Origin: a virus | Length of the DNA stretch: 41,934 nucleotides | Strand: one strand, 5' to 3' | Virus genome (UHGV): UHGV-0119548 | In this document: positions 5,850 to 33,102 of the stretch, in pieces | Position numbering within the stretch: the stretch's first letter is position 1 | Layout: every line of letters begins with the position of its first letter | The notes under the pieces: generated by a model | Seen by the model: the letters and a program-made list of their open reading frames with translations, nothing else | Database searches by the model: none | What the model was told of the DNA's origin: nothing | Position numbers and translations under genes: made by a program

Positions 5850-6523
5850 TTGTCAGATCTCCATATTGAATGCGTTTGTCGAACATACGCGGGCCGCATT
5901 TGCTCGCGGCGGCTTAGCAGTCCGGCATTGTCATGATGCAAAACAGTGTTATCGCCCAGGAAAATCATCGCGTGGCATGGGTCAGCGCCTTTAAACGGCT
6001 GGCGGATAATCACGTCACCAGGCTGAATGCTTTGCGCATCAACCATGAAAAACCCGTTCAATGGCAGGTTTTTTATGTACAGGTTTTCCCCACGCAGCCA
6101 CCACCCATCGTGGCGCTCAAAGTCAGGTAGATCCACGCCGCAAAGGTGATAGGCGTCACGGAAAAGCGAGTAGCAGTCTGTTTTCCCGTGCTCAAATTTA
6201 CGGCCTAACAGGTGCGCTACCGGGAGAAACTTTCTCACCCTGCCACCTGAACATAAAAACCACGGCAGGCCGGAAATAACATGCTGTTGTCGATCCCGTG
6301 CCGACAATACCAGGGTATCATCGGTGTGGGAGTGGAAAACTGCTGTTATAACGCCTAATTCGTCAGCTTTGATATAATCGTCAGGCGAGATTTTAAAGCT
6401 GTTGTGCGGCGTTTCAGACACGTTTAAGCACGGGTAAAAATAATCGTTATCTATCACCAGGCCGCAAACTTCCTCACGCGGGTGTGCTGCTGCATAGCGA
6501 ATCATTTTATCTTCAAGCGCCAT
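5792..6523 (-). CDS. K: tail assembly protein K-like (MPN/JAB plus NlpC/P60 domains)
   Basis: HSHTDD (JAB-like) and KTDCYSLFRDAYHLCG (NlpC/P60 Cys) motifs; start chosen at ATG 6523 with RBS AAGGTGGG, 2 nt after L stop. Confidence 0.8.
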   Translation of the reverse strand: MALEDKMIRYAAAHPREEVCGLVIDNDYFYPCLNVSETPHNSFKISPDDYIKADELGVITAVFHSHTDDTLVLSARDRQQHVISGLPWFLCSGGRVRKFLPVAHLLGRKFEHGKTDCYSLFRDAYHLCGVDLPDFERHDGWWLRGENLYIKNLPLNGFFMVDAQSIQPGDVIIRQPFKGADPCHAMIFLGDNTVLHHDNAGLLSRREQMRPAYVRQTHSIWRSDKCSNLDLRAIFEDITAKCV

Positions 6524-13030: not shown

Positions 13031-13693
13031 TTGCTCGCGATTTTTCATTCTTTTTAGTATCTCCATAGCACCATTCATTCCATCGTCATAAGCCTTTTTA
13101 TCCAGCAATACATTTGGGCGTTTTTGTTTGTTTCTTGCTTCTGGCGGCGTTTTAGCGCGTACAACGGCCCTATATCCGGTCATTGTCATATTCCATGCTT
13201 CTGATTCTGATAACCCCAGGTGAGCTACGGCAGAATAAACGAATTCCAGCACGTTAAAAGTCGGCTTATATTCCCCTTCCCGGATCTCTCCGGCGTCTTC
13301 TTCTGGCCCGTCACCGATTAAACCGTGGTACATGCAATGTTGTGCCAGCGTGATAACGTCACTGGTCGGCATCAGTCCGGGTTTTAGTCGTAACTTGGCG
13401 GAAGAAGTTAACCTACATTCACCCAATAACGGGGCTATTTCGTCGTCTGAGCAACATTTCAGGATGCGCATTGACGTTTGTACTATCTCACCATAACACC
13501 GCGCCATAATGCGATTGCGGAGGTCTGGATCTGTAGGCAATCGTGATGGGTATTTGCTGCCGTGGATAAGTGCGAAATATTCGACAAGCTCACTATCGTT
13601 GCCGATTTTAGCCATCGCAGCAAAGCAAGGATTAAACTCATAGCGCTTACCGTTCACCACAGCCGCAAATTGTCCTGTACGAACATGGATCAT
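13016..13693 (-). CDS. putative tail assembly chaperone (by position), about 225 aa
   Basis: between major tail gene and tape measure; start taken at ATG 13693 with AAGGTGA RBS (track uses upstream GTG 13702). Confidence 0.5.
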   Translation of the reverse strand: MIHVRTGQFAAVVNGKRYEFNPCFAAMAKIGNDSELVEYFALIHGSKYPSRLPTDPDLRNRIMARCYGEIVQTSMRILKCCSDDEIAPLLGECRLTSSAKLRLKPGLMPTSDVITLAQHCMYHGLIGDGPEEDAGEIREGEYKPTFNVLEFVYSAVAHLGLSESEAWNMTMTGYRAVVRAKTPPEARNKQKRPNVLLDKKAYDDGMNGAMEILKRMKNREQEKAR

Positions 13694-26177: not shown

Positions 26178-26201
26178 GCAAAAACCCGGCGCGGGGCCGG
26201 G
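26178..26201 (-). terminator. intrinsic terminator immediately upstream of holin (tR-prime-like)
   Basis: hairpin CCCGGC-GCGGG-GCCGGG (26185-26201) followed on minus strand by TTTTTGCTTT. Confidence 0.55.
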
Positions 26202-26229
26202 TAATTACAATTTCGCATTGTTAGGAAAT

Positions 26230-26258
26230 ATTTTAATCTGTTTGTTTGCGCTCTACAA
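26230..26258 (-). promoter_or_regulatory. candidate sigma70-type promoter (late, pR-prime-like)
   Basis: minus-strand -35 TTGTAG (26258-26253), 17-nt spacer, -10 TAAAAT (26235-26230); about 25 nt upstream of the terminator hairpin. Confidence 0.3.
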
Positions 26259-26266
26259 ATACGGCG

Positions 26267-26494
26267 TTAACGATAAGGTCCAAGCAAACGAACAAGCCAT
26301 TCTTTGTATTTGACGGCAACGTGTTTTGGTGCAAAATATCCTTGCACTTCCTTACCGCCTCGCCACTCCCTTCTAAATTCGCACTCGTTTTGATACTCCT
26401 TTCCGCTTTTACTATCCAGCCAGCAAGCAGGTGAGTAACCTTTTTCACTTCCGAACCGATGCCATATTGATGACAGCAAAACCCTTTCTTCCAT
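26267..26494 (-). CDS. hypothetical protein (75 aa)
   Basis: ORF with GGGGG RBS; alternative frame 26233-26508 judged less likely. Confidence 0.4.
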   Translation of the reverse strand: MEERVLLSSIWHRFGSEKGYSPACWLDSKSGKEYQNECEFRREWRGGKEVQGYFAPKHVAVKYKEWLVRLLGPYR

Positions 26495-26516
26495 ATTACC
26501 CCCAACAAATACGGCT

Positions 26517-26693
26517 TTACGCAGTTCTGTATATCAGGCCGTTATCAAGCAATGTTTGCATGTGTTCGCGATCCATGTCGCTTAATTCCCAATAAGGAAC
26601 ATCTTCATTCCTTATCATCACCTCTTCGCCTCTCACCAAATAGGCGATGTCAAATACCTTATGCAAATAGATGCCATCTTCGATCTCGTTCAT
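26517..26693 (-). CDS. hypothetical protein (58 aa)
   Basis: ATGA coupling to upstream gene; MNEIEDGIYLHKVFDIAYLV...; below track cutoff. Confidence 0.45.
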   Translation of the reverse strand: MNEIEDGIYLHKVFDIAYLVRGEEVMIRNEDVPYWELSDMDREHMQTLLDNGLIYRTA

Positions 26694-26872
26694 AGGTCGC
26701 TAACCTTTACCAGTTCACCAGCATCAAGAAATATTTTAATTGTTTCTCGCGTCGTCTTAATGATTGGCGCAACCCACTCGCCACCACCAACACGGATACG
26801 AATATCATCGCCTTCCACGCGATAAAGCAACCCGTCAACTGCTGTTGCTGAGTACACGCCATCTTTAATCAT
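26690..26872 (-). CDS. hypothetical protein (60 aa)
   Basis: ORF in tightly packed array. Confidence 0.45.
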   Translation of the reverse strand: MIKDGVYSATAVDGLLYRVEGDDIRIRVGGGEWVAPIIKTTRETIKIFLDAGELVKVSDL

Positions 26873-27105
26873 TTCTTGCGCTCCTTAATGGCTCGCTTGA
26901 TCTGCACTACCGTAGCATCGAAGAAAGCGAGAAACATAACTACAGGCAATAAAGGAATCTCAATGCCACCAGGTTCAGCGCCGCTATACTTAATAAAACA
27001 TGACATCAGGATCGCGCCAGCTATATAAAGCAAAACAATCACAGCAATAAGGCATTCAATCATAATCATCCTCATCGTCTTCATGTTCAGCCAGGAACTC
27101 ATCAA
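26869..27105 (-). CDS. small membrane protein (78 aa, two TM segments)
   Basis: hydrophobic stretches IMIECLIAVIVLLYIAGAILM and LLPVVMFLAFF. Confidence 0.5.
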   Translation of the reverse strand: MMSSWLNMKTMRMIMIECLIAVIVLLYIAGAILMSCFIKYSGAEPGGIEIPLLPVVMFLAFFDATVVQIKRAIKERKK

Positions 27106-27196
27106 CTACGCGGTAAGTTACTGGCGGGATGTATTCGAAATCATCAGAATCAAGATCGAGCGTCCTGCTGTCGCCGTCGTCGTCCATCGTATTCAT
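27056..27196 (-). CDS. highly acidic small protein (46 aa from ATG 27196; track extends to TTG 27355)
   Basis: MNTMDDDGDSRTLDLDSDDFEYIPPVTYRVVDEFLAEHEDDEDDYD; upstream TTG start would overlap neighbour by 70 nt. Confidence 0.4.
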   Translation of the reverse strand: MNTMDDDGDSRTLDLDSDDFEYIPPVTYRVVDEFLAEHEDDEDDYD

Positions 27197-27284
27197 TCCA
27201 AGTTCACCGAAAGGGCCGTACCCAATATGGCCCAGGTATTCGCAACCAACCGTAAAGCCAGGATATTCACCTTTACACCTGACT

Positions 27285-27626
27285 TTATACAGCTTGTTTG
27301 ATGCGCTCAATTTCCGCCACTCCGTTTTCTCCTTCAGTGATTTTGTATTCCGCAACCAGTTCAGCGCCGATCAAATCCACTTCGTTTTTAGATGTTTTAT
27401 GGCTAGAATCAAACATCAGCGAGGCAAAAACGAAGTGTTTAACGTGATTTTCATCTTCAAGGTGTTTCACATCGAAAGGCGGTTCAGATACATGGAAGCA
27501 CTTGATGTGAGCGTCGTTATCAGTAGCTACGCGGAAACATGCGCCAGGTTGCCCGGCGTACTGTCCCAATCTTTCTTCGTTCGGTAAAGTACCACGGAAA
27601 ACTTTAACGCTGATAAATTTGTACAT
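27285..27626 (-). CDS. hypothetical protein (113 aa)
   Basis: ORF in packed array. Confidence 0.5.
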   Translation of the reverse strand: MYKFISVKVFRGTLPNEERLGQYAGQPGACFRVATDNDAHIKCFHVSEPPFDVKHLEDENHVKHFVFASLMFDSSHKTSKNEVDLIGAELVAEYKITEGENGVAEIERIKQAV

Positions 27627-27649
27627 TGCTTATTCTCCTTAGTAATAAA

Positions 27650-27949
27650 TTAAAATTCAGCACCGGGTAAGCTACGCGCTTTATTTATAACATCTTGTTT
27701 TAACAATAATAGTGAGTGATAATGCATGTTAAACATGCTGCAAAGTGGCGTTTCACTATTTTCTGACTTAATTTTGAATAACTGGTTTGCAGTAAAAATC
27801 ATGTCGTCGTCTGTTATGTATAACCAGTCTCCGCGCTTGCCAACTACAACATGAGATTTTCCCCAACTGTCTTTAAATTCATAATCGCAGAAGGCATCAC
27901 CTTTAGGCACTTCAACAAAACAGCACGCTATGAATTTATCGCTTTTCAT
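27650..27949 (-). CDS. hypothetical protein (99 aa)
   Basis: ORF with GAAGGG RBS. Confidence 0.5.
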   Translation of the reverse strand: MKSDKFIACCFVEVPKGDAFCDYEFKDSWGKSHVVVGKRGDWLYITDDDMIFTANQLFKIKSENSETPLCSMFNMHYHSLLLLKQDVINKARSLPGAEF

Positions 27950-27992
27950 GATTCAACCCTTCTGGTTTGATGGAGCCATCCGACCCCGTGCT

Positions 27993-28133
27993 TTATCCTT
28001 CTTTGCCTCCTTTGAACCCCAAACACTCCGCGTATTCGTCAATGCTTAATGCTTCTTCACCTGGTGCCAATACTTCAAAGTAGCGGGCGTATAGTTCGAA
28101 AACCCAGGCCGGATATTTAGCGTTAGCGTTCAT
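27993..28133 (-). CDS. hypothetical protein (46 aa)
   Basis: ATG with GGGGGAA RBS; MNANAKYPAWVFELYARYFEVLAPGEEALSIDEYAECLGFKGGKEG. Confidence 0.4.
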   Translation of the reverse strand: MNANAKYPAWVFELYARYFEVLAPGEEALSIDEYAECLGFKGGKEG

Positions 28134-28142
28134 GGTTCCCCC

Positions 28143-28421
28143 TTATGCCATGCGTGCAAATTCAAGTGATTTGCATTCGTAGTCTTCCTCTGCCTGTTCG
28201 ATGACTGCCATCATCATTTCGTTTGCGTTGTTGAATGCGTTGCTTTGTGCGAACTTGTCGGCTCCACCTTCTTCTTCGAACTCCGCGTTGTTTGCTGCAA
28301 TGTAGTGATATTCGATGTTGTTCAGGTAAGGGCTTGCAGCGTGTGCTGGGTCTTCTTTCTCCACCATCTCCCAAAATGCGTTTAAGCGAGATTCGACTTC
28401 TTTGTTAATCCAGCGTTTCAT
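28143..28421 (-). CDS. hypothetical acidic protein (92 aa)
   Basis: ORF; Glu/Asp/Ala-rich. Confidence 0.5.
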   Translation of the reverse strand: MKRWINKEVESRLNAFWEMVEKEDPAHAASPYLNNIEYHYIAANNAEFEEEGGADKFAQSNAFNNANEMMMAVIEQAEEDYECKSLEFARMA

Positions 28422-28459
28422 TTTTCTACCCTCCGCATCGTTCTCTCTTCAGCTTCTTT

Positions 28460-28500
28460 ATAACAAAATGGCACTGCCGAAACAATGCCATTTCGTAAAC
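28460..28500. promoter_or_regulatory. imperfect inverted ACAAAATGGCA / TGCCATTTCGT motif pair
   Basis: ATAACAAAATGGCA 28460-28473 and TGCCATTTCGTAAAC 28486-28500; intergenic between two minus genes. Confidence 0.35.
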
Positions 28501-28519
28501 CTTGTGATACAGATCACAT

Positions 28520-28744
28520 TTACGTTTCTTCCGTAAAAGTAACCTTCATCGCCCCATCCGAACTACGGACAACATAACGACCAATACCGCCTAGCGGCCC
28601 TGCATACCATAAGTGACCGTAAGTGTCAGTTACGACGATAAACGGAAATTTAGGAGACAATCCCATCGGTTTTTCAGCCGTATACTGTGCGCCTTCTTCA
28701 AAACAGCCTAATTTCGATTCGTTACACGTTAAAATCATTTTCAT
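28520..28744 (-). CDS. paralog family member 4 (74 aa)
   Basis: shares motif h-h-TD-x3-h-W with three upstream neighbours (FIVVTDTYGHLWYAG). Confidence 0.55.
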   Translation of the reverse strand: MKMILTCNESKLGCFEEGAQYTAEKPMGLSPKFPFIVVTDTYGHLWYAGPLGGIGRYVVRSSDGAMKVTFTEET

Positions 28745-28980
28745 ACCCCTACATACGAAAACGCAGCAAAAGCACCACCACCAGCACGCGCATAAACAAG
28801 TGCCGTGCCATACCCCATCTTATAAAATCGCCATAACTGACCCTGGTCGTCAGTAATGGCATGAATATATTCCTGATCCTTTGCGTCAACCAATGCCGCG
28901 TCAACCTCGTAGATCTTGCCATTCTTAAAAAACGCGCTGCATCGTGAGTATGTGCACTGGTATCTATGTTTCCGATTCAT
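28741..28980 (-). CDS. paralog family member 3 (79 aa)
   Basis: FKNGKIYEV...IHAITDDQGQLWRFY; ATGA coupling. Confidence 0.55.
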   Translation of the reverse strand: MNRKHRYQCTYSRCSAFFKNGKIYEVDAALVDAKDQEYIHAITDDQGQLWRFYKMGYGTALVYARAGGGAFAAFSYVGV

Positions 28981-28990
28981 AGCACCTCAC

Positions 28991-29248
28991 TTATTCCGGT
29001 TTACTGCCTTCGCGGGCGCAAAACTCCGCGATCTCACGGAAATCATGCACTATGCGATAAATATACAAACCAGCGGCGTTATTGATATGGCTAACATAAG
29101 CGAAATAAACTTTATCATCATCGCCAGTTATCGCCATTGCACCATCACCGCCCGGTGCGCCGTGGAGTTGAACGCCGCAATAGATCTTCCCTTCTTCAAA
29201 AATATTGCGGTCGCGCGTCTGCAATACCTCAAAATATAAATGTTTCAT
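28991..29248 (-). CDS. paralog family member 2 (85 aa from ATG 29248)
   Basis: FEEGKIYCG...AMAITGDDDKVYFAY; RBS AGGGG. Confidence 0.55.
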   Translation of the reverse strand: MKHLYFEVLQTRDRNIFEEGKIYCGVQLHGAPGGDGAMAITGDDDKVYFAYVSHINNAAGLYIYRIVHDFREIAEFCAREGSKPE

Positions 29249-29258
29249 TGTTGCCCCT

Positions 29259-29471
29259 TTAATAACGTTCAAAGCTGGCAGCAAAACCTACACCGGATAT
29301 TTCACCGCCTTCATAGCTCGGCCTGAATACCCATATTTCGTCATGATTATCAATCAAGGCAAGGCAATTACTCATTGTGTGTGCTTCATTGCCATAAACG
29401 ATGTGAACGTCATAAATACTCCCAATCGTGAAAACACTGTCATTGCTTGAGTATGAGCATTTAACTTGCAT
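29259..29471 (-). CDS. paralog family member 1 (70 aa)
   Basis: GSIYDVH...CLALIDNHDEIWVFR. Confidence 0.55.
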   Translation of the reverse strand: MQVKCSYSSNDSVFTIGSIYDVHIVYGNEAHTMSNCLALIDNHDEIWVFRPSYEGGEISGVGFAASFERY

Positions 29472-29716
29472 CAGAAAACCCCTTTATAATCGACCGTGTA
29501 TTTTGCTATCAGATTCCAGTCGCAGTAATTAAGCATGTTGCGAGGCTGCCAGCCTTTCATCCCGACCGCCCGCCGCGCAGCGTGACGGCGATAATCATCG
29601 TTATAGTCAGCTATGCACCACGGCTGGAGAACAAACATATAATTTGCTTCATTAACCAGGATAGCCACCAGCTTTCCTGTTGCCTTGTCTTTTGCCCTGA
29701 AATAATTCACTTTCAT
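29471..29716 (-). CDS. hypothetical protein (81 aa)
   Basis: ORF in packed array. Confidence 0.5.
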   Translation of the reverse strand: MKVNYFRAKDKATGKLVAILVNEANYMFVLQPWCIADYNDDYRRHAARRAVGMKGWQPRNMLNYCDWNLIAKYTVDYKGVF

Positions 29717-29928
29717 TTTAACACCTCGTCGATCAACATTTCTTCTTCCAGGTTAGCCGGACGTTTACGAAATATCCCGGCAAAAACCAGATCTTCGAGT
29801 AGGTCTTTACGCTTAAATAACCACTCTTTCATTATCACCCCGTCGTTGCTGCGATATACGACGCCGCTTTTCAGAAAATAAAAAGTGCGGCTATTGGTCT
29901 GTAGGTAGAGATCTTCGTAAACGTCCAT
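29713..29928 (-). CDS. hypothetical protein (71 aa)
   Basis: ORF with ATGA coupling. Confidence 0.5.
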   Translation of the reverse strand: MDVYEDLYLQTNSRTFYFLKSGVVYRSNDGVIMKEWLFKRKDLLEDLVFAGIFRKRPANLEEEMLIDEVLK

Positions 29929-29932
29929 ACCG

Positions 29933-30160
29933 TTAATCCTCTACAATCTCAAGCCCGCGCCCCTTGTCCCCGACGAAATCGCCCAAGCTGAACGTATACG
30001 ACCACGCCGGATTGATGTAATGGTCATCAGCACCAGCGGCAATGAGATCAGCACCATTAATCATGCAAGTAATATCATCGCTATGAACGACATTAACGAC
30101 CTTACCAACAACCTGTTTCAATGACTGGTATCCGTGATCGTGCAAGAATTTAACTTTCAT
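29933..30160 (-). CDS. hypothetical protein (75 aa)
   Basis: ORF in packed array. Confidence 0.5.
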   Translation of the reverse strand: MKVKFLHDHGYQSLKQVVGKVVNVVHSDDITCMINGADLIAAGADDHYINPAWSYTFSLGDFVGDKGRGLEIVED

Positions 30161-30390
30161 TCGTCTGCCTCCCAGTGGTCTATGCTGATTAAAAAGTCCC
30201 GGATAGCGTGTCGTTCGTCGCGCGTTGGCTTGCGCTTACGGTAAATCTTAAAGTCAAACCATTCTTTTTCTTGTTCGAAATCCAGGTTGTAAGCAAGCAC
30301 CTCAATATATCCACATTCGTGATACTGGTACGCCACGCCAGCACGAACAAAAAAGCGGGTTTTATCCCGCTTGTGTTCATAGATACGCAT
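30157..30390 (-). CDS. hypothetical protein (77 aa)
   Basis: ORF with ATGA coupling. Confidence 0.5.
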   Translation of the reverse strand: MRIYEHKRDKTRFFVRAGVAYQYHECGYIEVLAYNLDFEQEKEWFDFKIYRKRKPTRDERHAIRDFLISIDHWEADE

Positions 30391-30400
30391 ATTTGCCCCA

Positions 30401-30631
30401 CTATGCAGTCGTGTAACTATCTACCAGCTTTTCATCCTTCATTCTGGCAAGCTGGGAGATATTCATCGTGTAGCCTTCATCAGAGAAAAGCCACTCCGCA
30501 GCCTTGCGACGAAAAGCTATATCATCATGGTTGCGCGTCCATGTAGCGATCACCACGCGCTTTCCATCAGTGGCAAACATGGTTAATTCGTTATCAACAA
30601 CGTCGATAGCCTGCCAGATTTTTAGTTCCAT
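30401..30631 (-). CDS. hypothetical protein (76 aa)
   Basis: ORF in packed array. Confidence 0.5.
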   Translation of the reverse strand: MELKIWQAIDVVDNELTMFATDGKRVVIATWTRNHDDIAFRRKAAEWLFSDEGYTMNISQLARMKDEKLVDSYTTA

Positions 30632-30987
30632 GATTTATCACCGTAGATCTTGAATAGTTCACACGCTTTCTGATCTTCAAATATATTCATATGCAGGTCA
30701 CGCAGACGGCGCATTGTTCGGAATCGCGGTCTAAACTCCTGGCTCCGTTTAATGTATTTGCCGCCAATTGAATAAATATGCCCGTATGAATACCATCTAT
30801 TCCCTACCCATATTTCATATTCTTTGCCTTCGTAATTGAATTTTATCGTTAGCTCGTCCACTTCAACTATTGACCATTTATCAATGATGTCATTAAGCAT
30901 TTCGTCCCATTCTTTCAGGAATGGATGCTGATAAAAACCGAAAAGCGTATTTGCAGCGTGGCAAAGGTAATCAATGATTATTTGCAT
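30622..30987 (-). CDS. hypothetical protein (121 aa)
   Basis: ORF in packed array. Confidence 0.5.
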   Translation of the reverse strand: MQIIIDYLCHAANTLFGFYQHPFLKEWDEMLNDIIDKWSIVEVDELTIKFNYEGKEYEIWVGNRWYSYGHIYSIGGKYIKRSQEFRPRFRTMRRLRDLHMNIFEDQKACELFKIYGDKSWN

Positions 30988-31207
30988 ATTTCCACCTTCT
31001 CAATATGTAGTAAATGTTATCGTAAGCTATATTATCCGCATCTTCCTGTGTTATATGTCTGGCATCAAAAAAGAAATCAGCGTCGTGCCATACATGAAAA
31101 AGAAGTCGCGCGAATTGTCTGCGGCGGCGCTTACTGCGTGATAGTTCGTTAAATTCTATTAACGCTTTATCATATGCTCTTATCATGCGCTTACGGTTAC
31201 TTTTCAT
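30971..31207 (-). CDS. basic small protein, paralog pair member b (78 aa)
   Basis: MKSNRKRMIRAYDKALIEF... parallels neighbour MKSRMKRLVRAYDKALMVF... Confidence 0.55.
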   Translation of the reverse strand: MKSNRKRMIRAYDKALIEFNELSRSKRRRRQFARLLFHVWHDADFFFDARHITQEDADNIAYDNIYYILRRWKYANNH

Positions 31208-31211
31208 ATTG

Positions 31212-31412
31212 TCACCACATCATATAGTAAACGTTATCATCTGCTAATTCGTCTGCGTCTCTTTGGCAGTCGATTGTCGCATCATCTTCGTGCCATTCTT
31301 TAGCAAATAAACGCGCCCATTTACGACGCTCACGTTTATTGTGCCGCAGGTCACTAAAAACCATTAAAGCCTTGTCGTAAGCTCTTACCAGGCGTTTCAT
31401 TCTACTTTTCAT
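31212..31412 (-). CDS. basic small protein, paralog pair member a (66 aa)
   Basis: tandem duplicate of 30971-31207. Confidence 0.55.
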   Translation of the reverse strand: MKSRMKRLVRAYDKALMVFSDLRHNKRERRKWARLFAKEWHEDDATIDCQRDADELADDNVYYMMW

Positions 31413-31618
31413 TTTTCACCCTTCCTTAATTCCTTAATTTCAATATTGCGTAACCGGACGTCGCACGGCGTTTCAGATTTACCAGTAAGCGCCAGCGTCA
31501 GGTTTTCAGGTGTCGTGTAAAGAATTATCTCTTTACCAGTGCTAAATTTAATTTCTATGCGGATCTCGTTTTCATCACCGCACAATACGCGGCTAATTGA
31601 CAGGCCAGCTTTTTTCAT
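31409..31618 (-). CDS. hypothetical protein (69 aa)
   Basis: ORF with ATGA coupling. Confidence 0.5.
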   Translation of the reverse strand: MKKAGLSISRVLCGDENEIRIEIKFSTGKEIILYTTPENLTLALTGKSETPCDVRLRNIEIKELRKGEK

Positions 31619-31631
31619 TGCTCAACAAACC

Positions 31632-31943
31632 TTAAAATCTGTATTGCCAGTAAATATCACACTTTATTGCGAATACCTTCACCGGATCAGGGCCGAATAG
31701 TGGATGTTGAATCAACTTGATTTCGTACCCCATGTAAGGCAATACGATAATCCGGTCTTTCTCATCATCCGATGGATAACCCCATTTAATGATTAATCTT
31801 GTGTACTCCCGCCCCTCCAGGCGTTTACGCCAGTATTCATTGTAAAGCCGGTATTCTTCCACCTTCTTTCCCGCCCGGATGGCGTGGAAGTATTCACCTT
31901 TTAAATTCAAATGTAAGTGTTTATTTGCCATCGCTATGATCAT
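31632..31943 (-). CDS. hypothetical protein (103 aa)
   Basis: ORF in packed array. Confidence 0.5.
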   Translation of the reverse strand: MIIAMANKHLHLNLKGEYFHAIRAGKKVEEYRLYNEYWRKRLEGREYTRLIIKWGYPSDDEKDRIIVLPYMGYEIKLIQHPLFGPDPVKVFAIKCDIYWQYRF

Positions 31944-32190
31944 GTAAACAGTCGTTATAGCCTTCGATGTATCCGGTTAATCCTGTGTTACTTACTGACC
32001 AATCAGCCGAACGGCGCTTGATGGCCTTGTCCATAGTCATCTCGTCACCTGGCCCGCCTGGCTCGATGTATTTTCTTAAATCCCTTACTATCCACGCCCT
32101 TAATTGTTGCGTATCACTGCACACACGCGCCGTTAATGTCAGATTATTAACCAGCTTTGCGAATAGATGTTCTTTTAATTTAGGCTTCAT
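31921..32190 (-). CDS. hypothetical protein (89 aa)
   Basis: ORF in packed array. Confidence 0.5.
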   Translation of the reverse strand: MKPKLKEHLFAKLVNNLTLTARVCSDTQQLRAWIVRDLRKYIEPGGPGDEMTMDKAIKRRSADWSVSNTGLTGYIEGYNDCLHDHSDGK

Positions 32191-32380
32191 CCTTCACCTC
32201 GCGACGATAGATTTCTACTGGCTTAACCGGAATAGCGTTAAAATCACCTTCATCCAGTGCGGCAATAAACGTTAGCGCCAACCGTGCTTCAACACCGCTT
32301 AAATACTTGCACCATGCCTCACCGTTATAATCTTTAAAAAGAATAATCACTTTTTTCATGTTTATCTCTTGTTGTTTCAT
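32180..32380 (-). CDS. hypothetical protein (66 aa)
   Basis: ATG overlaps Q stop by 1 nt (TAATG); RBS GGGGTGA. Confidence 0.5.
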   Translation of the reverse strand: MKQQEINMKKVIILFKDYNGEAWCKYLSGVEARLALTFIAALDEGDFNAIPVKPVEIYRREVKDEA

Positions 32381-33102
32381 TATTCACCCCGTGTCACTCG
32401 TTTAATTTCGTTATCAGCCCGCGCCTCTTCTTTGAACAATTCAGTAATGGCGTCTTCATAGAAAGCACGGTATTTCTTCCACCACGTTGATCGGCTTACC
32501 GGAAATACAAGCTGATTAACCGCACGCCGGACAAGATCTACAGGGAAACGCGAGTACCCGCGCCCGCCGCAATGCTGGCACGTTTTGAACGCTGGCATTT
32601 CCGCTGCTTCACTGGCTGCTTTATCCGGTATCTCGCCGCGCCCTTTGCATCGTTTACAATGATTGCGAACTTTTCCATGCCCCTTGCATTTTTTGCAAAG
32701 GTGTTTTTCTCCGTAGTCGTCAAACGTAAATTTATATCCGCCGCAATCCATACAAGTTTTTTCTGTCGCGGCACTCTGGCAGTAATCCCGAAACGCGAAA
32801 ACGGCAACAAGAATAATAAGATCATTGCGTTTGTCCTCGTCCAACTCCATGACGTATTCGTAATCTTTTGCCATAGCTCTTAAACGCTCTGTAAGCAAAA
32901 CTACGGCCCTGTGTTTTTCGGCTTGCGATAATTCCATCTTCCCTAAAAAAGCGCTATAACCAAGCTCTACGCGCGATTGCGCCATACCTGCTGCGGTTAG
33001 TGCATCAGTAGTATTAAGCGAGTCTGGGGACGTGCCCCGGCTTTCATCTGACAAACGCGGTGATTTTGGGAGGTGGAATTTAAGAATAGATTCCAAATTC
33101 AT
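32380..33102 (-). CDS. Q: late-gene antiterminator Q-like protein (240 aa) with four CxxCxGxG zinc-finger repeats
   Basis: N-terminus MNLESILKFHLPKSPRLSDESRGTSPDSL...AAGMAQS resembles lambda Q as recalled; central Cys-rich region; downstream of NinG-RusA. Confidence 0.8.
   Translation of the reverse strand: MNLESILKFHLPKSPRLSDESRGTSPDSLNTTDALTAAGMAQSRVELGYSAFLGKMELSQAEKHRAVVLLTERLRAMAKDYEYVMELDEDKRNDLIILVAVFAFRDYCQSAATEKTCMDCGGYKFTFDDYGEKHLCKKCKGHGKVRNHCKRCKGRGEIPDKAASEAAEMPAFKTCQHCGGRGYSRFPVDLVRRAVNQLVFPVSRSTWWKKYRAFYEDAITELFKEEARADNEIKRVTRGE

Follow-up and report, generated by a model that had tools for sequence, protein, structure and literature searches.

What is the block of small genes that separates the late antiterminator gene Q from the lysis genes in UHGV-0119548, and when is it expressed? 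The entire 41,934-nt virus sequence was analysed and is referred to here as the window. Its DNA matches phages mEp044, mEp010, mEp554, mEp013 and mEp021 and 35 E. coli prophages, and the window is an mEpimmI (mEp021-like) temperate coliphage. The block is a flexible accessory array of these coliphages that is probably transcribed early, may be host-directed and lies between the Q gene and the probable site at which Q acts.

A first-pass annotation had described a dense array of small ORFs separating Q from the lysis genes, and matches to a lambda-type Q and to a holin confirm that arrangement. Q is recognized by Pfam (PF03589, E 7.7e-30), matches lambda Q in PDB 7UBM (E 3e-39) and is 35% identical to lambda Q over its full length. 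The lysis genes are ordered class II holin, endolysin, spanin. The boundaries of the array are as follows.

32380-33102, minus strand: Q, lambda-type late antiterminator, 240 aa; upstream boundary
25959-26159, minus strand: class II holin (PF16080, E 7e-14), which opens the lysis cassette; downstream boundary

Between them, 25 minus-strand ORFs rather than the proposed 30 or so fill positions 26267-32380; the size range given earlier, 46-121 aa, was correct. The genes are tightly packed as described, but most are not ATGA-coupled: only 6 of the 25 junctions are 4-nt ATGA overlaps. About 13 junctions overlap in some way, and the remaining genes are separated by 4-23 nt, apart from longer gaps of 43, 98 and 107 nt. 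The Q stop codon overlaps the ATG of g01 by 1 nt. The products are small soluble proteins and one membrane protein (g22), and three families within the array are tandem paralogs.

32180-32380, minus: g01, 66 aa; phrog_35000 (E 2e-42); dN/dS 0.31; 38 of 51 arrays
31921-32190, minus: g02, 89 aa; phrog_29262; dN/dS 0.22; 44 of 51 arrays
31632-31943, minus: g03, 103 aa, ASCH-like (below threshold); phrog_625 (E 3e-37); dN/dS 0.08
31409-31618, minus: g04, 69 aa; phrog_1222; 21 of 51 arrays
31212-31412, minus: g05, 66 aa, basic, helical, paralog of g06; phrog_8758; pI 8.9; dN/dS 0.19
30971-31207, minus: g06, 78 aa, basic, helical, paralog of g05; phrog_8758; pI 10.1
30622-30987, minus: g07, 121 aa; phrog_16975 (E 5e-60); dN/dS 0.09; 50 of 51 arrays
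30401-30631, minus: g08, 76 aa, ortholog of mEp021 gp38 by sequence match; phrog_38280; dN/dS 0.12; 51 of 51 arrays
30157-30390, minus: g09, 77 aa, ortholog of mEp021 gp39; phrog_30442; dN/dS 0.06; 51 of 51 arrays
29933-30160, minus: g10, 75 aa, ortholog of mEp021 gp40; phrog_5009; dN/dS 0.075; tblastn match in all loci
29713-29928, minus: g11, 71 aa, ortholog of mEp021 gp41; dN/dS 0.085; 51 of 51 arrays
29471-29716, minus: g12, 81 aa, ortholog of mEp021 gp42; phrog_38609; dN/dS 0.10; 51 of 51 arrays
29259-29471, minus: g13, 70 aa, member 1 of the predicted beta-barrel family; phrog_31142; dN/dS 0.22
28991-29248, minus: g14, 85 aa, ATG at 29248 as called by PGAP in relatives, probable member 2; dN/dS 0.16
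28741-28980, minus: g15, 79 aa, member 3, predicted six-stranded beta-barrel
28520-28744, minus: g16, 74 aa, member 4; dN/dS 0.19
28143-28421, minus: g17, 92 aa, very acidic (net charge -11, pI 4.4); phrog_7287; dN/dS 0.16; 20 of 51 arrays
27993-28133, minus: g18, 46 aa; phrog_22232 (E 3e-34); dN/dS 0.07
27650-27949, minus: g19, 99 aa, ortholog of mEp021 gp43 by sequence match; dN/dS 0.18; 37 of 51 arrays
27285-27626, minus: g20, 113 aa; phrog_23107 (E 9e-56); dN/dS 0.34
27056-27355, minus: g21, acidic, start uncertain (99 aa from a TTG, or 46 aa from the ATG at 27196)
26869-27105, minus: g22, small membrane protein, probable start near 27069; phrog_10061; dN/dS 0.45
26690-26872, minus: g23, 60 aa, paralog of g24; phrog_15318 (E 2.6e-29); dN/dS 0.24
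26517-26693, minus: g24, 58 aa, paralog of g23, ortholog of mEp021 gp45 by sequence match; phrog_15318 (E 2.7e-31)
26267-26494, minus: g25, 75 aa, indel cassette; phrog_23715; dN/dS 0.14; 13 of 51 arrays

The shortness of these ORFs, down to 46 aa, could mean that many are not genes and that ORF calling in non-coding or decaying DNA has produced most of the array artificially. ORFs in alternative frames are abundant, and searches of Pfam and NCBIfam with the array proteins gave nothing above threshold. In g21, the ATG used by relatives, in which PGAP calls a 45-aa form, appears by eye to be absent; residues 16-98 match phrog_25234. Against this stand the substitution rates. Comparison of orthologs from about 50 related phages gave dN/dS of 0.06-0.45 (dS 0.08-1.35) for 24 of the 25 ORFs, with Q at 0.11 and the holin at 0.07; g21 has too few full-length orthologs and lies outside this set. 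The 24 measurable genes are under purifying selection and are therefore real genes, which essentially refutes the artefact. Moreover, 21 of the 25 proteins match PHROG families, PGAP calls the same genes in relatives, gene order is kept across about 50 genomes, and the ortholog of one product has been detected by mass spectrometry. An artefact is thus very improbable. The same values do not agree with the diversifying selection suggested earlier, since gene-wide dN/dS is well below 1 in every gene measured.

The array is variable in content and constant in order. Across 51 loci, collinear arrays of 8-28 ORFs span 2006-6804 bp and draw on about 29 families, of which the window holds a near-maximal set. 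ORF clustering of the 51 arrays places g08, g09, g11 and g12 in every one. The number of copies per array is 0-5 for the g13-g16 family, 0-2 for g05/g06 and 0-4 for the g23/g24 cluster, a count that also takes in g21-type ORFs; copy number thus varies among relatives. A direct repeat (26246-26269 and 26496-26519) borders the g25 cassette on both sides. Variation is mainly gain, loss and allelic replacement from a pool of about 29 families in fixed order, not open-ended capture of morons. The possibility that the genes are insertions peculiar to this genome was rejected, as about 50 mEpimmI relatives all carry a collinear array.

An invariant non-coding module that bears on the time of expression lies at the holin end.

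26217-26258, minus strand: putative late promoter PR', from conservation and analogy with lambda PR'
26178-26202, minus strand: intrinsic terminator immediately before the holin RBS, tR' equivalent (mEp021 TERM_5)

This module occupies about 100 nt of non-coding DNA upstream of the holin and reads AAACAAAYRGAT-TAAAAT-7 nt-AACAAT-14 nt-terminator-RBS. It comprises the invariant AAACAAAYRGAT (26247-26236), a candidate Q-binding element, a -10 (TAAAAT, 26235-26230) and AACAAT (26222-26217), which resembles a sigma-dependent pause element. It is invariant in all 49 loci whose sequence extends to the holin, regardless of the accessory gene before it, and the whole window, Q included, holds no second copy. 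The -35, TTGTAG (26258-26253), is weak, and its region is not conserved, occurring as two upstream variants that do not track Q type; a generic promoter scan did not flag the module. The terminator was found by a terminator scan (7-bp stem with 6 GC pairs, T5; fold -25.4 kcal/mol, z -3.9). Its mEp021 counterpart, TERM_5, is annotated with a score of 100, and t5 of mEp021 is listed as experimentally demonstrated (PMC11893012). The PR' regions of lambda (TAAATT-6 nt-AACGAT) and ST104 (TAGAAT-11 nt-AACAGT-terminator) have the same layout. Conservation and this analogy suggest that the module is a promoter and that it depends on Q.

PR' comes immediately after Q in lambda and ST104, whereas the putative PR' of the mEpimmI group abuts the holin, which places the array between the Q gene and the probable site of action of Q. 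The proposed equivalence with the moron site of Stx phages is therefore not supported: Stx cargo is downstream of PR'/tR' and Q-dependent late, whereas the entire mEpimmI array is upstream of the putative PR'. By this analogy, expression of the array is most likely early rather than late. RNA polymerase modified at nutR2 by the N-like antiterminator Gp17 would transcribe it as the last part of the early rightward operon, and it would stay outside the Q-dependent late operon. A boxA/boxB-like nutR2 is located at 34511-34543, upstream of the array and after terminator t4; in mEp021, nutR2 after t4 is described likewise (PMC11893012). The modified polymerase would read through two internal terminator-like hairpins.

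30343-30372, minus strand: terminator-like hairpin, AAGCGGGATAAAACCCGC plus T6, inside the 5' end of the g09 coding sequence
28461-28518, minus strand: g16-g17 intergenic element, a palindrome followed by a hairpin

The g09 hairpin was picked up by the terminator scan (fold z-score -4.6) and scarcely differs among about 50 loci, in contrast to the variable synonymous sites around it. The g16-g17 element consists of a perfect TGTGA-N6-TCACA palindrome (28503-28518) and a 15-bp hairpin with a T-tract (28461-28493; fold z-score -3.8) that is conserved across loci and corresponds in position to predicted terminator T7 of mEp044. Because Gp17-modified polymerase would also pass tR', early and late expression would not be cleanly separable.

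Two other accounts of expression make different use of these elements. PR' might lie at or inside the 3' end of Q, making the array Q-dependent late cargo like stx and leaving only a terminator and an RBS before the holin. The location of the array between Q and the lysis genes and the placement of PR' directly after Q in lambda and ST104 favour this. In addition, the g09 hairpin of mEp021 is only about 260 nt past the Q stop, a spacing like that of lambda Q/PR'/tR', and g08 holds a 13-nt invariant run containing ACACGATG. However, Q leaves no non-coding space behind it: its stop overlaps the next gene whichever follows (g01, g02, g03, g07 or g08), and no conserved non-coding sequence is found there. 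An alignment of g08 with the 60 nt before it contains no -10 plus pause-element module, and the sole PR'-like module in the window is that at 26217-26258. A promoterless terminator before the holin would also block the lysis genes unless polymerase were already antiterminated. We consider late cargo unlikely.

It is also doubtful that g17-g25 form a moron block expressed in the lysogen from a CRP-dependent promoter in the g16-g17 gap, with host exclusion or fitness functions outside the lytic cycle. The palindrome there is one of only two perfect sites in 42 kb, and the four matches with at most one mismatch were reached in 3 of 100 shuffles. A distance of about 61 nt, counted by hand, separates its centre from a possible downstream start behind TTGTTT-17 nt-TATAAA, which is the geometry of class I CRP sites; the hairpin that precedes g17-g25 could insulate the block, and g22 encodes a membrane protein. 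Yet the -35 is poor, roughly half of the related sequences have a degenerate second half-site, and no PADLOC match was obtained. The other perfect palindrome is the stem of terminator t4, and both regions share GTTTACRAAATGGC; the motif may therefore belong to a terminator family rather than mark a CRP site.

The array products may act on host processes early in infection, in takeover, counter-defence or exclusion. The earlier view of an accessory locus without recognizable domains is borne out: genes are small, paralogs are in tandem, all PHROG matches are of "unknown function", and no array protein matches a known defence or anti-defence model in PADLOC. KilA-N in g25 scores 17.6 bits against a cutoff of 23.8, and ASCH in g03 16.9 bits against 21.2; PGAP names the g03 ortholog WP_001703268.1 "ASCH domain-containing protein". 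Stx phages and Salmonella phages both have g03 homologs, and one annotated Stx-type record has the match next to EaA; homologs of g04 (47-58% identical) occur in Dhillonvirus and Stx-converting phages. The 19-residue hydropathy maximum of g22 is 2.76.

Both paralog families noted previously are real, and a third tandem pair, g23/g24, had been missed. The basic pair at 30971-31412, g05 and g06, is 49% identical over 69 aa (E 3e-22). The four-member family at 28520-29471 survives proper alignment with uneven support. In hhalign, g13/g15 (probability 96%, E 2e-9), g15/g14 (66%, E 5e-5) and g13/g16 (41%, E 2.7e-4) rank first to third among the cluster-pair comparisons made, each of them collinear. 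A merged g13+g15 profile matches g16 at 88% (E 3.5e-6, 68 columns) and g14 at only 19.5%. Membership of g13, g15 and g16 is well supported by these profiles; g14 is a probable member and the weakest.

The g15 model resembles a small non-essential protein of phage Bas11, Gp54, which binds the defence protein CapRelSJ46 and activates it; the match comes from a single AlphaFold model of moderate confidence, built on a shallow alignment of 15 sequences, and sequence comparison gave no support for it. The g13-g16 family is accordingly predicted to share the rare six-stranded beta-barrel of Gp54, and the match provides one structural link from the array to phage-host immunity. A similar predicted fold (TM 0.6-0.74) is found in small uncharacterized proteins of many enterobacterial phages.

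The product of g11 is 87% identical to mEp021_41, annotated as "virion structural protein". One mEp021 virion protein detected by mass spectrometry is encoded upstream of the lysis region (PMC11893012), and we take it to be gp41. Detection of this g11 ortholog in purified mEp021 virions sits uneasily with the idea that g11 has a purely early, host-directed role.

All genes in the array part of the window are on the minus strand. ORF analysis places 25 small genes, numbered g01 to g25 from the Q side, between the Q antiterminator gene and the holin gene:

32380-33102, minus strand: Q antiterminator, 240 aa (PF03589, E 7.7e-30; lambda Q, 35% over the full length; 7UBM, E 3e-39)
32380 down to 26267, minus strand: g01-g25, ORFs of 46-121 aa
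25959-26159, minus strand: class II holin, followed by the endolysin and then the spanin

The first-pass annotation, whose observation is largely right, described about 30 ORFs, mostly ATGA-coupled. The dense cassette of small ORFs is there, but the count is 25, and the coupling is partial: six junctions are ATGA overlaps, about 13 overlap in some way, and the others are gaps of 4-23 nt, apart from three larger ones of 43, 98 and 107 nt. Orthologs were compared across 46 IMG/VR phage contigs (retrieved with Q as query), mEp044, mEp021 and two E. coli prophages. Nei-Gojobori dN/dS values against orthologs in related phages are 0.06-0.45 for 24 of the 25 ORFs, with Q (0.11) and the holin (0.07) as controls; g21 was left out because it has too few full-length orthologs. 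PHROG matches exist for 21 of the 25 proteins, every one labeled 'unknown function', and PGAP calls the same genes in relatives. The array ORFs are real genes under purifying selection. The 24 measured genes give no gene-wide signal of diversifying selection, so the suggestion that the locus evolves in that way is unsupported. All 25 genes are now annotated 'hypothetical', and the purifying selection on them makes functional screening worthwhile.

As the first-pass annotation had it, no domains are recognized: none of the 25 proteins scores above threshold in Pfam, NCBIfam or PADLOC, and none matches a PADLOC defence-system model at E ≤ 0.01. PDB sequence searches with g03, g07, g17 and g20 gave nothing useful. 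Rfam and tRNA scans gave no match, the sole sroH match (18.5 bits, threshold 80) being noise.

The window DNA matches the mEpimmI group of coliphages (mEp021, mEp044, mEp010, mEp013, mEp515 and mEp554) and 35 E. coli prophages. The paper that describes mEpimmI presents it as a new, gut-prevalent family, reports it to be as common as lambdoid phages in human gut samples, and places its flexible genes, about 49% of all genes, in variable regions (Negrete-Mendez et al. 2025, PMC11893012). The array is one of these variable regions, with the same locus, flanks and gene order. It is bordered by orthologs of mEp021 gp37 (Q) and gp46 (class II holin), and g08, g09, g10, g11, g12, g19 and g24 correspond collinearly to mEp021 gp38-gp43 and gp45 at 74-97% identity; gp44 of mEp021 has no counterpart in the window. 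Across 50 loci Q is 81-100% identical, and holin orthologs lie downstream. Every relative carries the array at the same position, from 2006 bp with eight genes in mEp021 to 6804 bp with 28 ORFs (median 5509 bp; 6223 bp in the window). The gene order is fixed and draws on a small pool of about 29 families. ORF clustering finds g08, g09, g11 and g12 in every array, tblastn finds g10 in every locus, and g07 is present in 50 of 51. The family formed by g13-g16 ranges from 0 to 5 copies and that of g05 and g06 from 0 to 2, with two copies in 7 of 49 arrays. Comparison of related phages confirms the earlier view of an accessory locus with tandem paralogs that vary in copy number. Because the order is fixed, the family pool small and the array present in every relative, the window array, with 25 genes against eight in mEp021, comes close to the maximal form of a flexible region already known and conserved, and is not a set of genome-specific insertions. 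The examined passages of the mEpimmI paper describe neither the array nor its paralog families, nor where the late promoter lies, and the words 'late promoter', 'late gene' and 'holin' are absent from its text (PMC11893012).

The two ends of the array differ. At the Q end the following gene begins in overlap with the Q stop codon, and its identity differs among loci. At the holin end, an alignment of the 260 nt upstream of the holin in all loci reveals that the coding sequence of the last accessory gene, whichever gene that is, gives way to an invariant non-coding module. Its order is AAACAAAYRGAT, TAAAAT, 7 nt, AACAAT, 14 nt, a hairpin ACCCGGCCCCGCGCCGGG followed by T5, the ribosome-binding site and the holin ATG. 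The module is single-copy in the window, at 26178-26258, and no second copy occurs anywhere in the window. A -10 hexamer followed by a -10-like pause element (TAAAAT-7 nt-AACAAT) is invariant in all loci. AAACAAAYRGAT, located between the -35 and -10 positions, is likewise invariant and is a candidate Q-binding element. The downstream intrinsic terminator (hairpin plus T5, 26178-26202) corresponds to TERM_5 of mEp021, which we equate with the t5 terminator that the mEpimmI paper lists as experimentally demonstrated (PMC11893012). The layout recurs in lambda PR' (TAAATT-6 nt-AACGAT, AACGAT being the sigma-dependent pause element) and in ST104, which has one of the nearest Q proteins outside the mEpimmI group and a late promoter reading TAGAAT-11 nt-AACAGT-terminator. 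No conserved promoter-like module was found in g08. From the invariant module next to the holin and the lack of one at the Q end, we infer that the late promoter PR' directly adjoins the holin, with the array between the Q gene and the target of Q. This putative displacement of the late promoter is a modestly new point of the present work. Q sequence type does not correlate with the variant sequence upstream of PR'. A boxB-like RNA hairpin considered within the module (ACAAU-GCGAA-AUUGU) was rejected, as its 3' arm varies (U to C or G) and its 5' arm does not compensate.

The position of this module bears on how the array is likely to be regulated. Stx phages have the arrangement Q, PR', tR', cargo, S. 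The window uses the same interval, Q to the lysis genes, and in both cases it holds accessory cargo, but here the PR'/tR'-like module follows the cargo: the only such module recognized in the sequence, at 26178-26258, is downstream of all 25 genes. The expected regulation is therefore early and not Q-dependent late, and the Stx-like late position proposed in the first-pass annotation is probably wrong. The array also has likenesses to lambda nin and other lambdoid early accessory regions, runs of small, dispensable genes that are coupled in translation and belong to the N-antiterminated PR operon; like them, it is mosaic among relatives. NinG and RusA are encoded just upstream here. The lambda nin genes lie upstream of Q, however, and lambda PR' starts 44 nt after Q, whereas in the window the array comes after Q and PR' would be about 6.1 kb from the Q gene. 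If PR' is at the holin, the Q gene and its target are separated in this group by 2-7 kb of early accessory genes, and the predicted timing of cargo expression changes. This cautions against reading every stretch from Q to the lysis genes as a late moron site of the Stx kind.

Read most simply, the array would form the tail of an early operon antiterminated by Gp17, the N-like antiterminator of the group. A boxA-like TGCTCTTTAA and a boxB-like GCAGCGCTGAAATGCG are found at 34511-34543 on the minus strand, directly following terminator t4 and ahead of NinG, RusA and Q. The pair fits nutR2, the Gp17 site, which in mEp021 is placed at the equivalent position after t4 by the mEpimmI paper (PMC11893012). 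Transcription antiterminated in this way would read through two conserved internal hairpins. About 50 related phages carry the hairpin within the g09 coding sequence (AAGCGGGATAAAACCCGC plus T6, 30343-30372, minus strand) in essentially unchanged form, whereas the synonymous sites flanking it vary. In mEp021 the distance from the Q stop codon downstream to the hairpin is only about 260 nt. The hairpin is likely to be a functional RNA or terminator element overlapping the gene. The hairpin after g16 is also conserved and corresponds to the predicted terminator T7 of mEp044. The window contains two perfect TGTGA-N6-TCACA palindromes, which match the consensus half-sites of CRP:

28461-28518, minus strand: palindrome and hairpin region in the g16-g17 gap, the palindrome just upstream of a strong hairpin
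34593-34628, minus strand: palindrome region of terminator t4, the palindrome being the upper stem of the terminator

Both regions also share GTTTACRAAATGGC. Each may be a CRP site, or the two may represent a terminator-associated motif repeated in this phage group. Under the classical definition, every moron gene has a promoter and a terminator of its own. Of such signals, the array offers the two internal hairpins of terminator type and a single possible promoter of CRP type; promoter-like sites are no commoner than in shuffled sequence, at 15 against 16.1 expected.

Three groups of tandem paralogs are present in the array, two of which had been noted before. g05 and g06 are clearly paralogs by sequence (49% identity, E 3e-22); each is a basic protein (pI 8.9 and 10.1) with a match to phrog_8758. 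Homologue searches found their family in E. coli prophages only, and its model is a helical bundle (pLDDT 83.6) with uninformative structural neighbors. For g13-g16 (28520-29471) pairwise comparison is weak (best E 7e-4), and profiles of the clusters were built from related phages and compared in pairs with hhalign. The top three cluster pairs are g13-g15 (96%, E 2e-9), g15-g14 (66%, E 5e-5) and g13-g16 (41%, E 2.7e-4), all collinear. A merged g13 and g15 profile matches g16 at 88% (E 3.5e-6, 68 columns) and cluster c34, a further variant found before g13 in other phages, at 19% (E 1.3e-3). The family holds at the profile level, with g14 its least secure member. The third pair, g23 and g24 (both phrog_15318, E about 1e-30), had been overlooked. 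The 'TDD' motifs of g19, g20 and g21 made these genes candidates for the g13-g16 family, which hhalign does not support (at most 11%). g21 also seemed to be linked to the g23/g24 cluster; this is an artefact that a hybrid gene in three related loci (L030-L032) creates.

The g13-g16 proteins are predicted to form a six-stranded small barrel with a prominent β1-β2 loop, structurally closest to 9AXB, the Gp54 protein of phage Bas11 (Zhang et al., Nature 2024, PMC11578894). Both are small accessory phage proteins, of 66 aa for Gp54 and 70-85 aa for g13-g16, and both have six β strands and a long β1-β2 loop. They differ in that there is no detectable sequence similarity (10% identity) and in that the window's family occurs in a temperate phage, in four tandem copies. 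A profile search of PDB sequences did not recover 9AXB, and the family HMM has no match in one complete Dhillonvirus genome. Foldseek against BFVD finds similar predicted folds (TM 0.6-0.74) in small uncharacterized proteins of many enterobacterial phages. Even close homologues of Gp54 do not activate CapRelSJ46 (PMC11578894). The predicted match is best taken as placing these proteins with Gp54 in one kind of small accessory barrel; it says nothing further.

The family motif, h-A-h-T-D-D-x-G-x-h-W, makes up the hairpin that connects strands 3 and 4; it resembles both a β-propeller blade hairpin and the repeats in protein P0022. When g15 was used in a word-indexed homologue search, close variants from E. 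coli prophages were all that it retrieved. An exhaustive HMMER search with the profile of the four paralogs revealed no small distant relatives; it gave matches in several stretches to β-propeller repeat proteins, which arise because the motif hairpin resembles the blade hairpin. These matches raised the alternative that each protein is a single-blade propeller subunit (Reg_prop, NHL or BNR-like). Each phage protein has one copy of the motif and not 4-8 repeats, and the alternative was rejected because the model is a closed six-stranded barrel and not a blade.

The single specific lead to function among the array proteins is this structural match. Few proteins are known to trigger a bacterial immune sensor directly, and Gp54 is one of them; g13-g16 are its first candidate relatives, by predicted fold only; this Gp54-like fold is a second modestly new point of the present work. 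The family varies naturally from 0 to 5 copies and sits in an inducible temperate phage, a handy setting for learning the role of the fold. A bolder proposal, which we think improbable, is that the array is a counter-defence island. It would be Gp17 (N)-dependent and early; the four tandem Gp54-fold barrels g13-g16, of which relatives have 0-5 copies, would be diversified immune-sensor binders acting as inhibitors of, or decoys for, CapRel-type systems; and the unusual insertion between Q and a displaced PR' would ensure their production before commitment to late gene expression.

g03 scores 16.9 bits against Pfam ASCH (PF04266; cutoff 21.2), over the first 26 profile positions only; PGAP labels a g03 ortholog ASCH, and there is a weak match to PH0355 (E 0.28). 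Homologues of g03 and g04 are present in Stx phages, Dhillonvirus and Salmonella phages, and in one annotated Stx-type record the g03 match adjoins EaA. For g25 a below-threshold match to KilA-N is the closest domain hint in Pfam. Computed properties make g22 a membrane protein and show g17 and g21 to be very acidic. The ortholog of g11 (29713-29928) in mEp021, mEp021_41 (6216-6464 in locus L002), is annotated 'virion structural protein'. The mEpimmI paper reports one small protein, encoded upstream of the lysis region and detected by MS in CsCl-purified virions, for which RegA-like nucleic-acid binding is suggested (PMC11893012); we take this to be gp41, the g11 ortholog. Presence in the virion is odd for a gene of an apparently early accessory array. 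By eye, the ATG of the g21 orthologs is apparently missing in the window, so that g21 would lack the start codon of its relatives. Two starts are left: a TTG, which makes g21 overlap g20 by 71 nt (27285-27355), and an ATG inside the gene at 27196, for a product of 46 aa. The window copy of g21 may be decaying or cut short at its N-terminus.

Traces of reshaping are visible at several points in the array. g25, present in 13 of 51 arrays, is bracketed by a direct repeat (26246-26269 and 26496-26519) with an 11-nt exact core, ACAAATACGGC, an arrangement suggesting that a cassette was inserted or deleted. The promoter-side copy of the repeat overlaps the -35 region of the putative PR'. In L030-L032 the hybrid gene (about 13319-13552) joins the N-terminus of g21 to a g23-like C-terminus, and in the database homologue P0057 an ASCH-like g03 N-terminus is fused to g05 at an RKRL microhomology. 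These hybrid genes are evidence of microhomology deletions between neighboring array genes. A metagenomic phage (L005, IMGVR_UViG_3300029816_000005) has Q and g01-g17 at 100% protein identity to the window in tblastn and diverges from g18 on, for example with no g19 or g25 and with g23 at 48%. This switch indicates a recent recombination breakpoint near the g17-g18 boundary.
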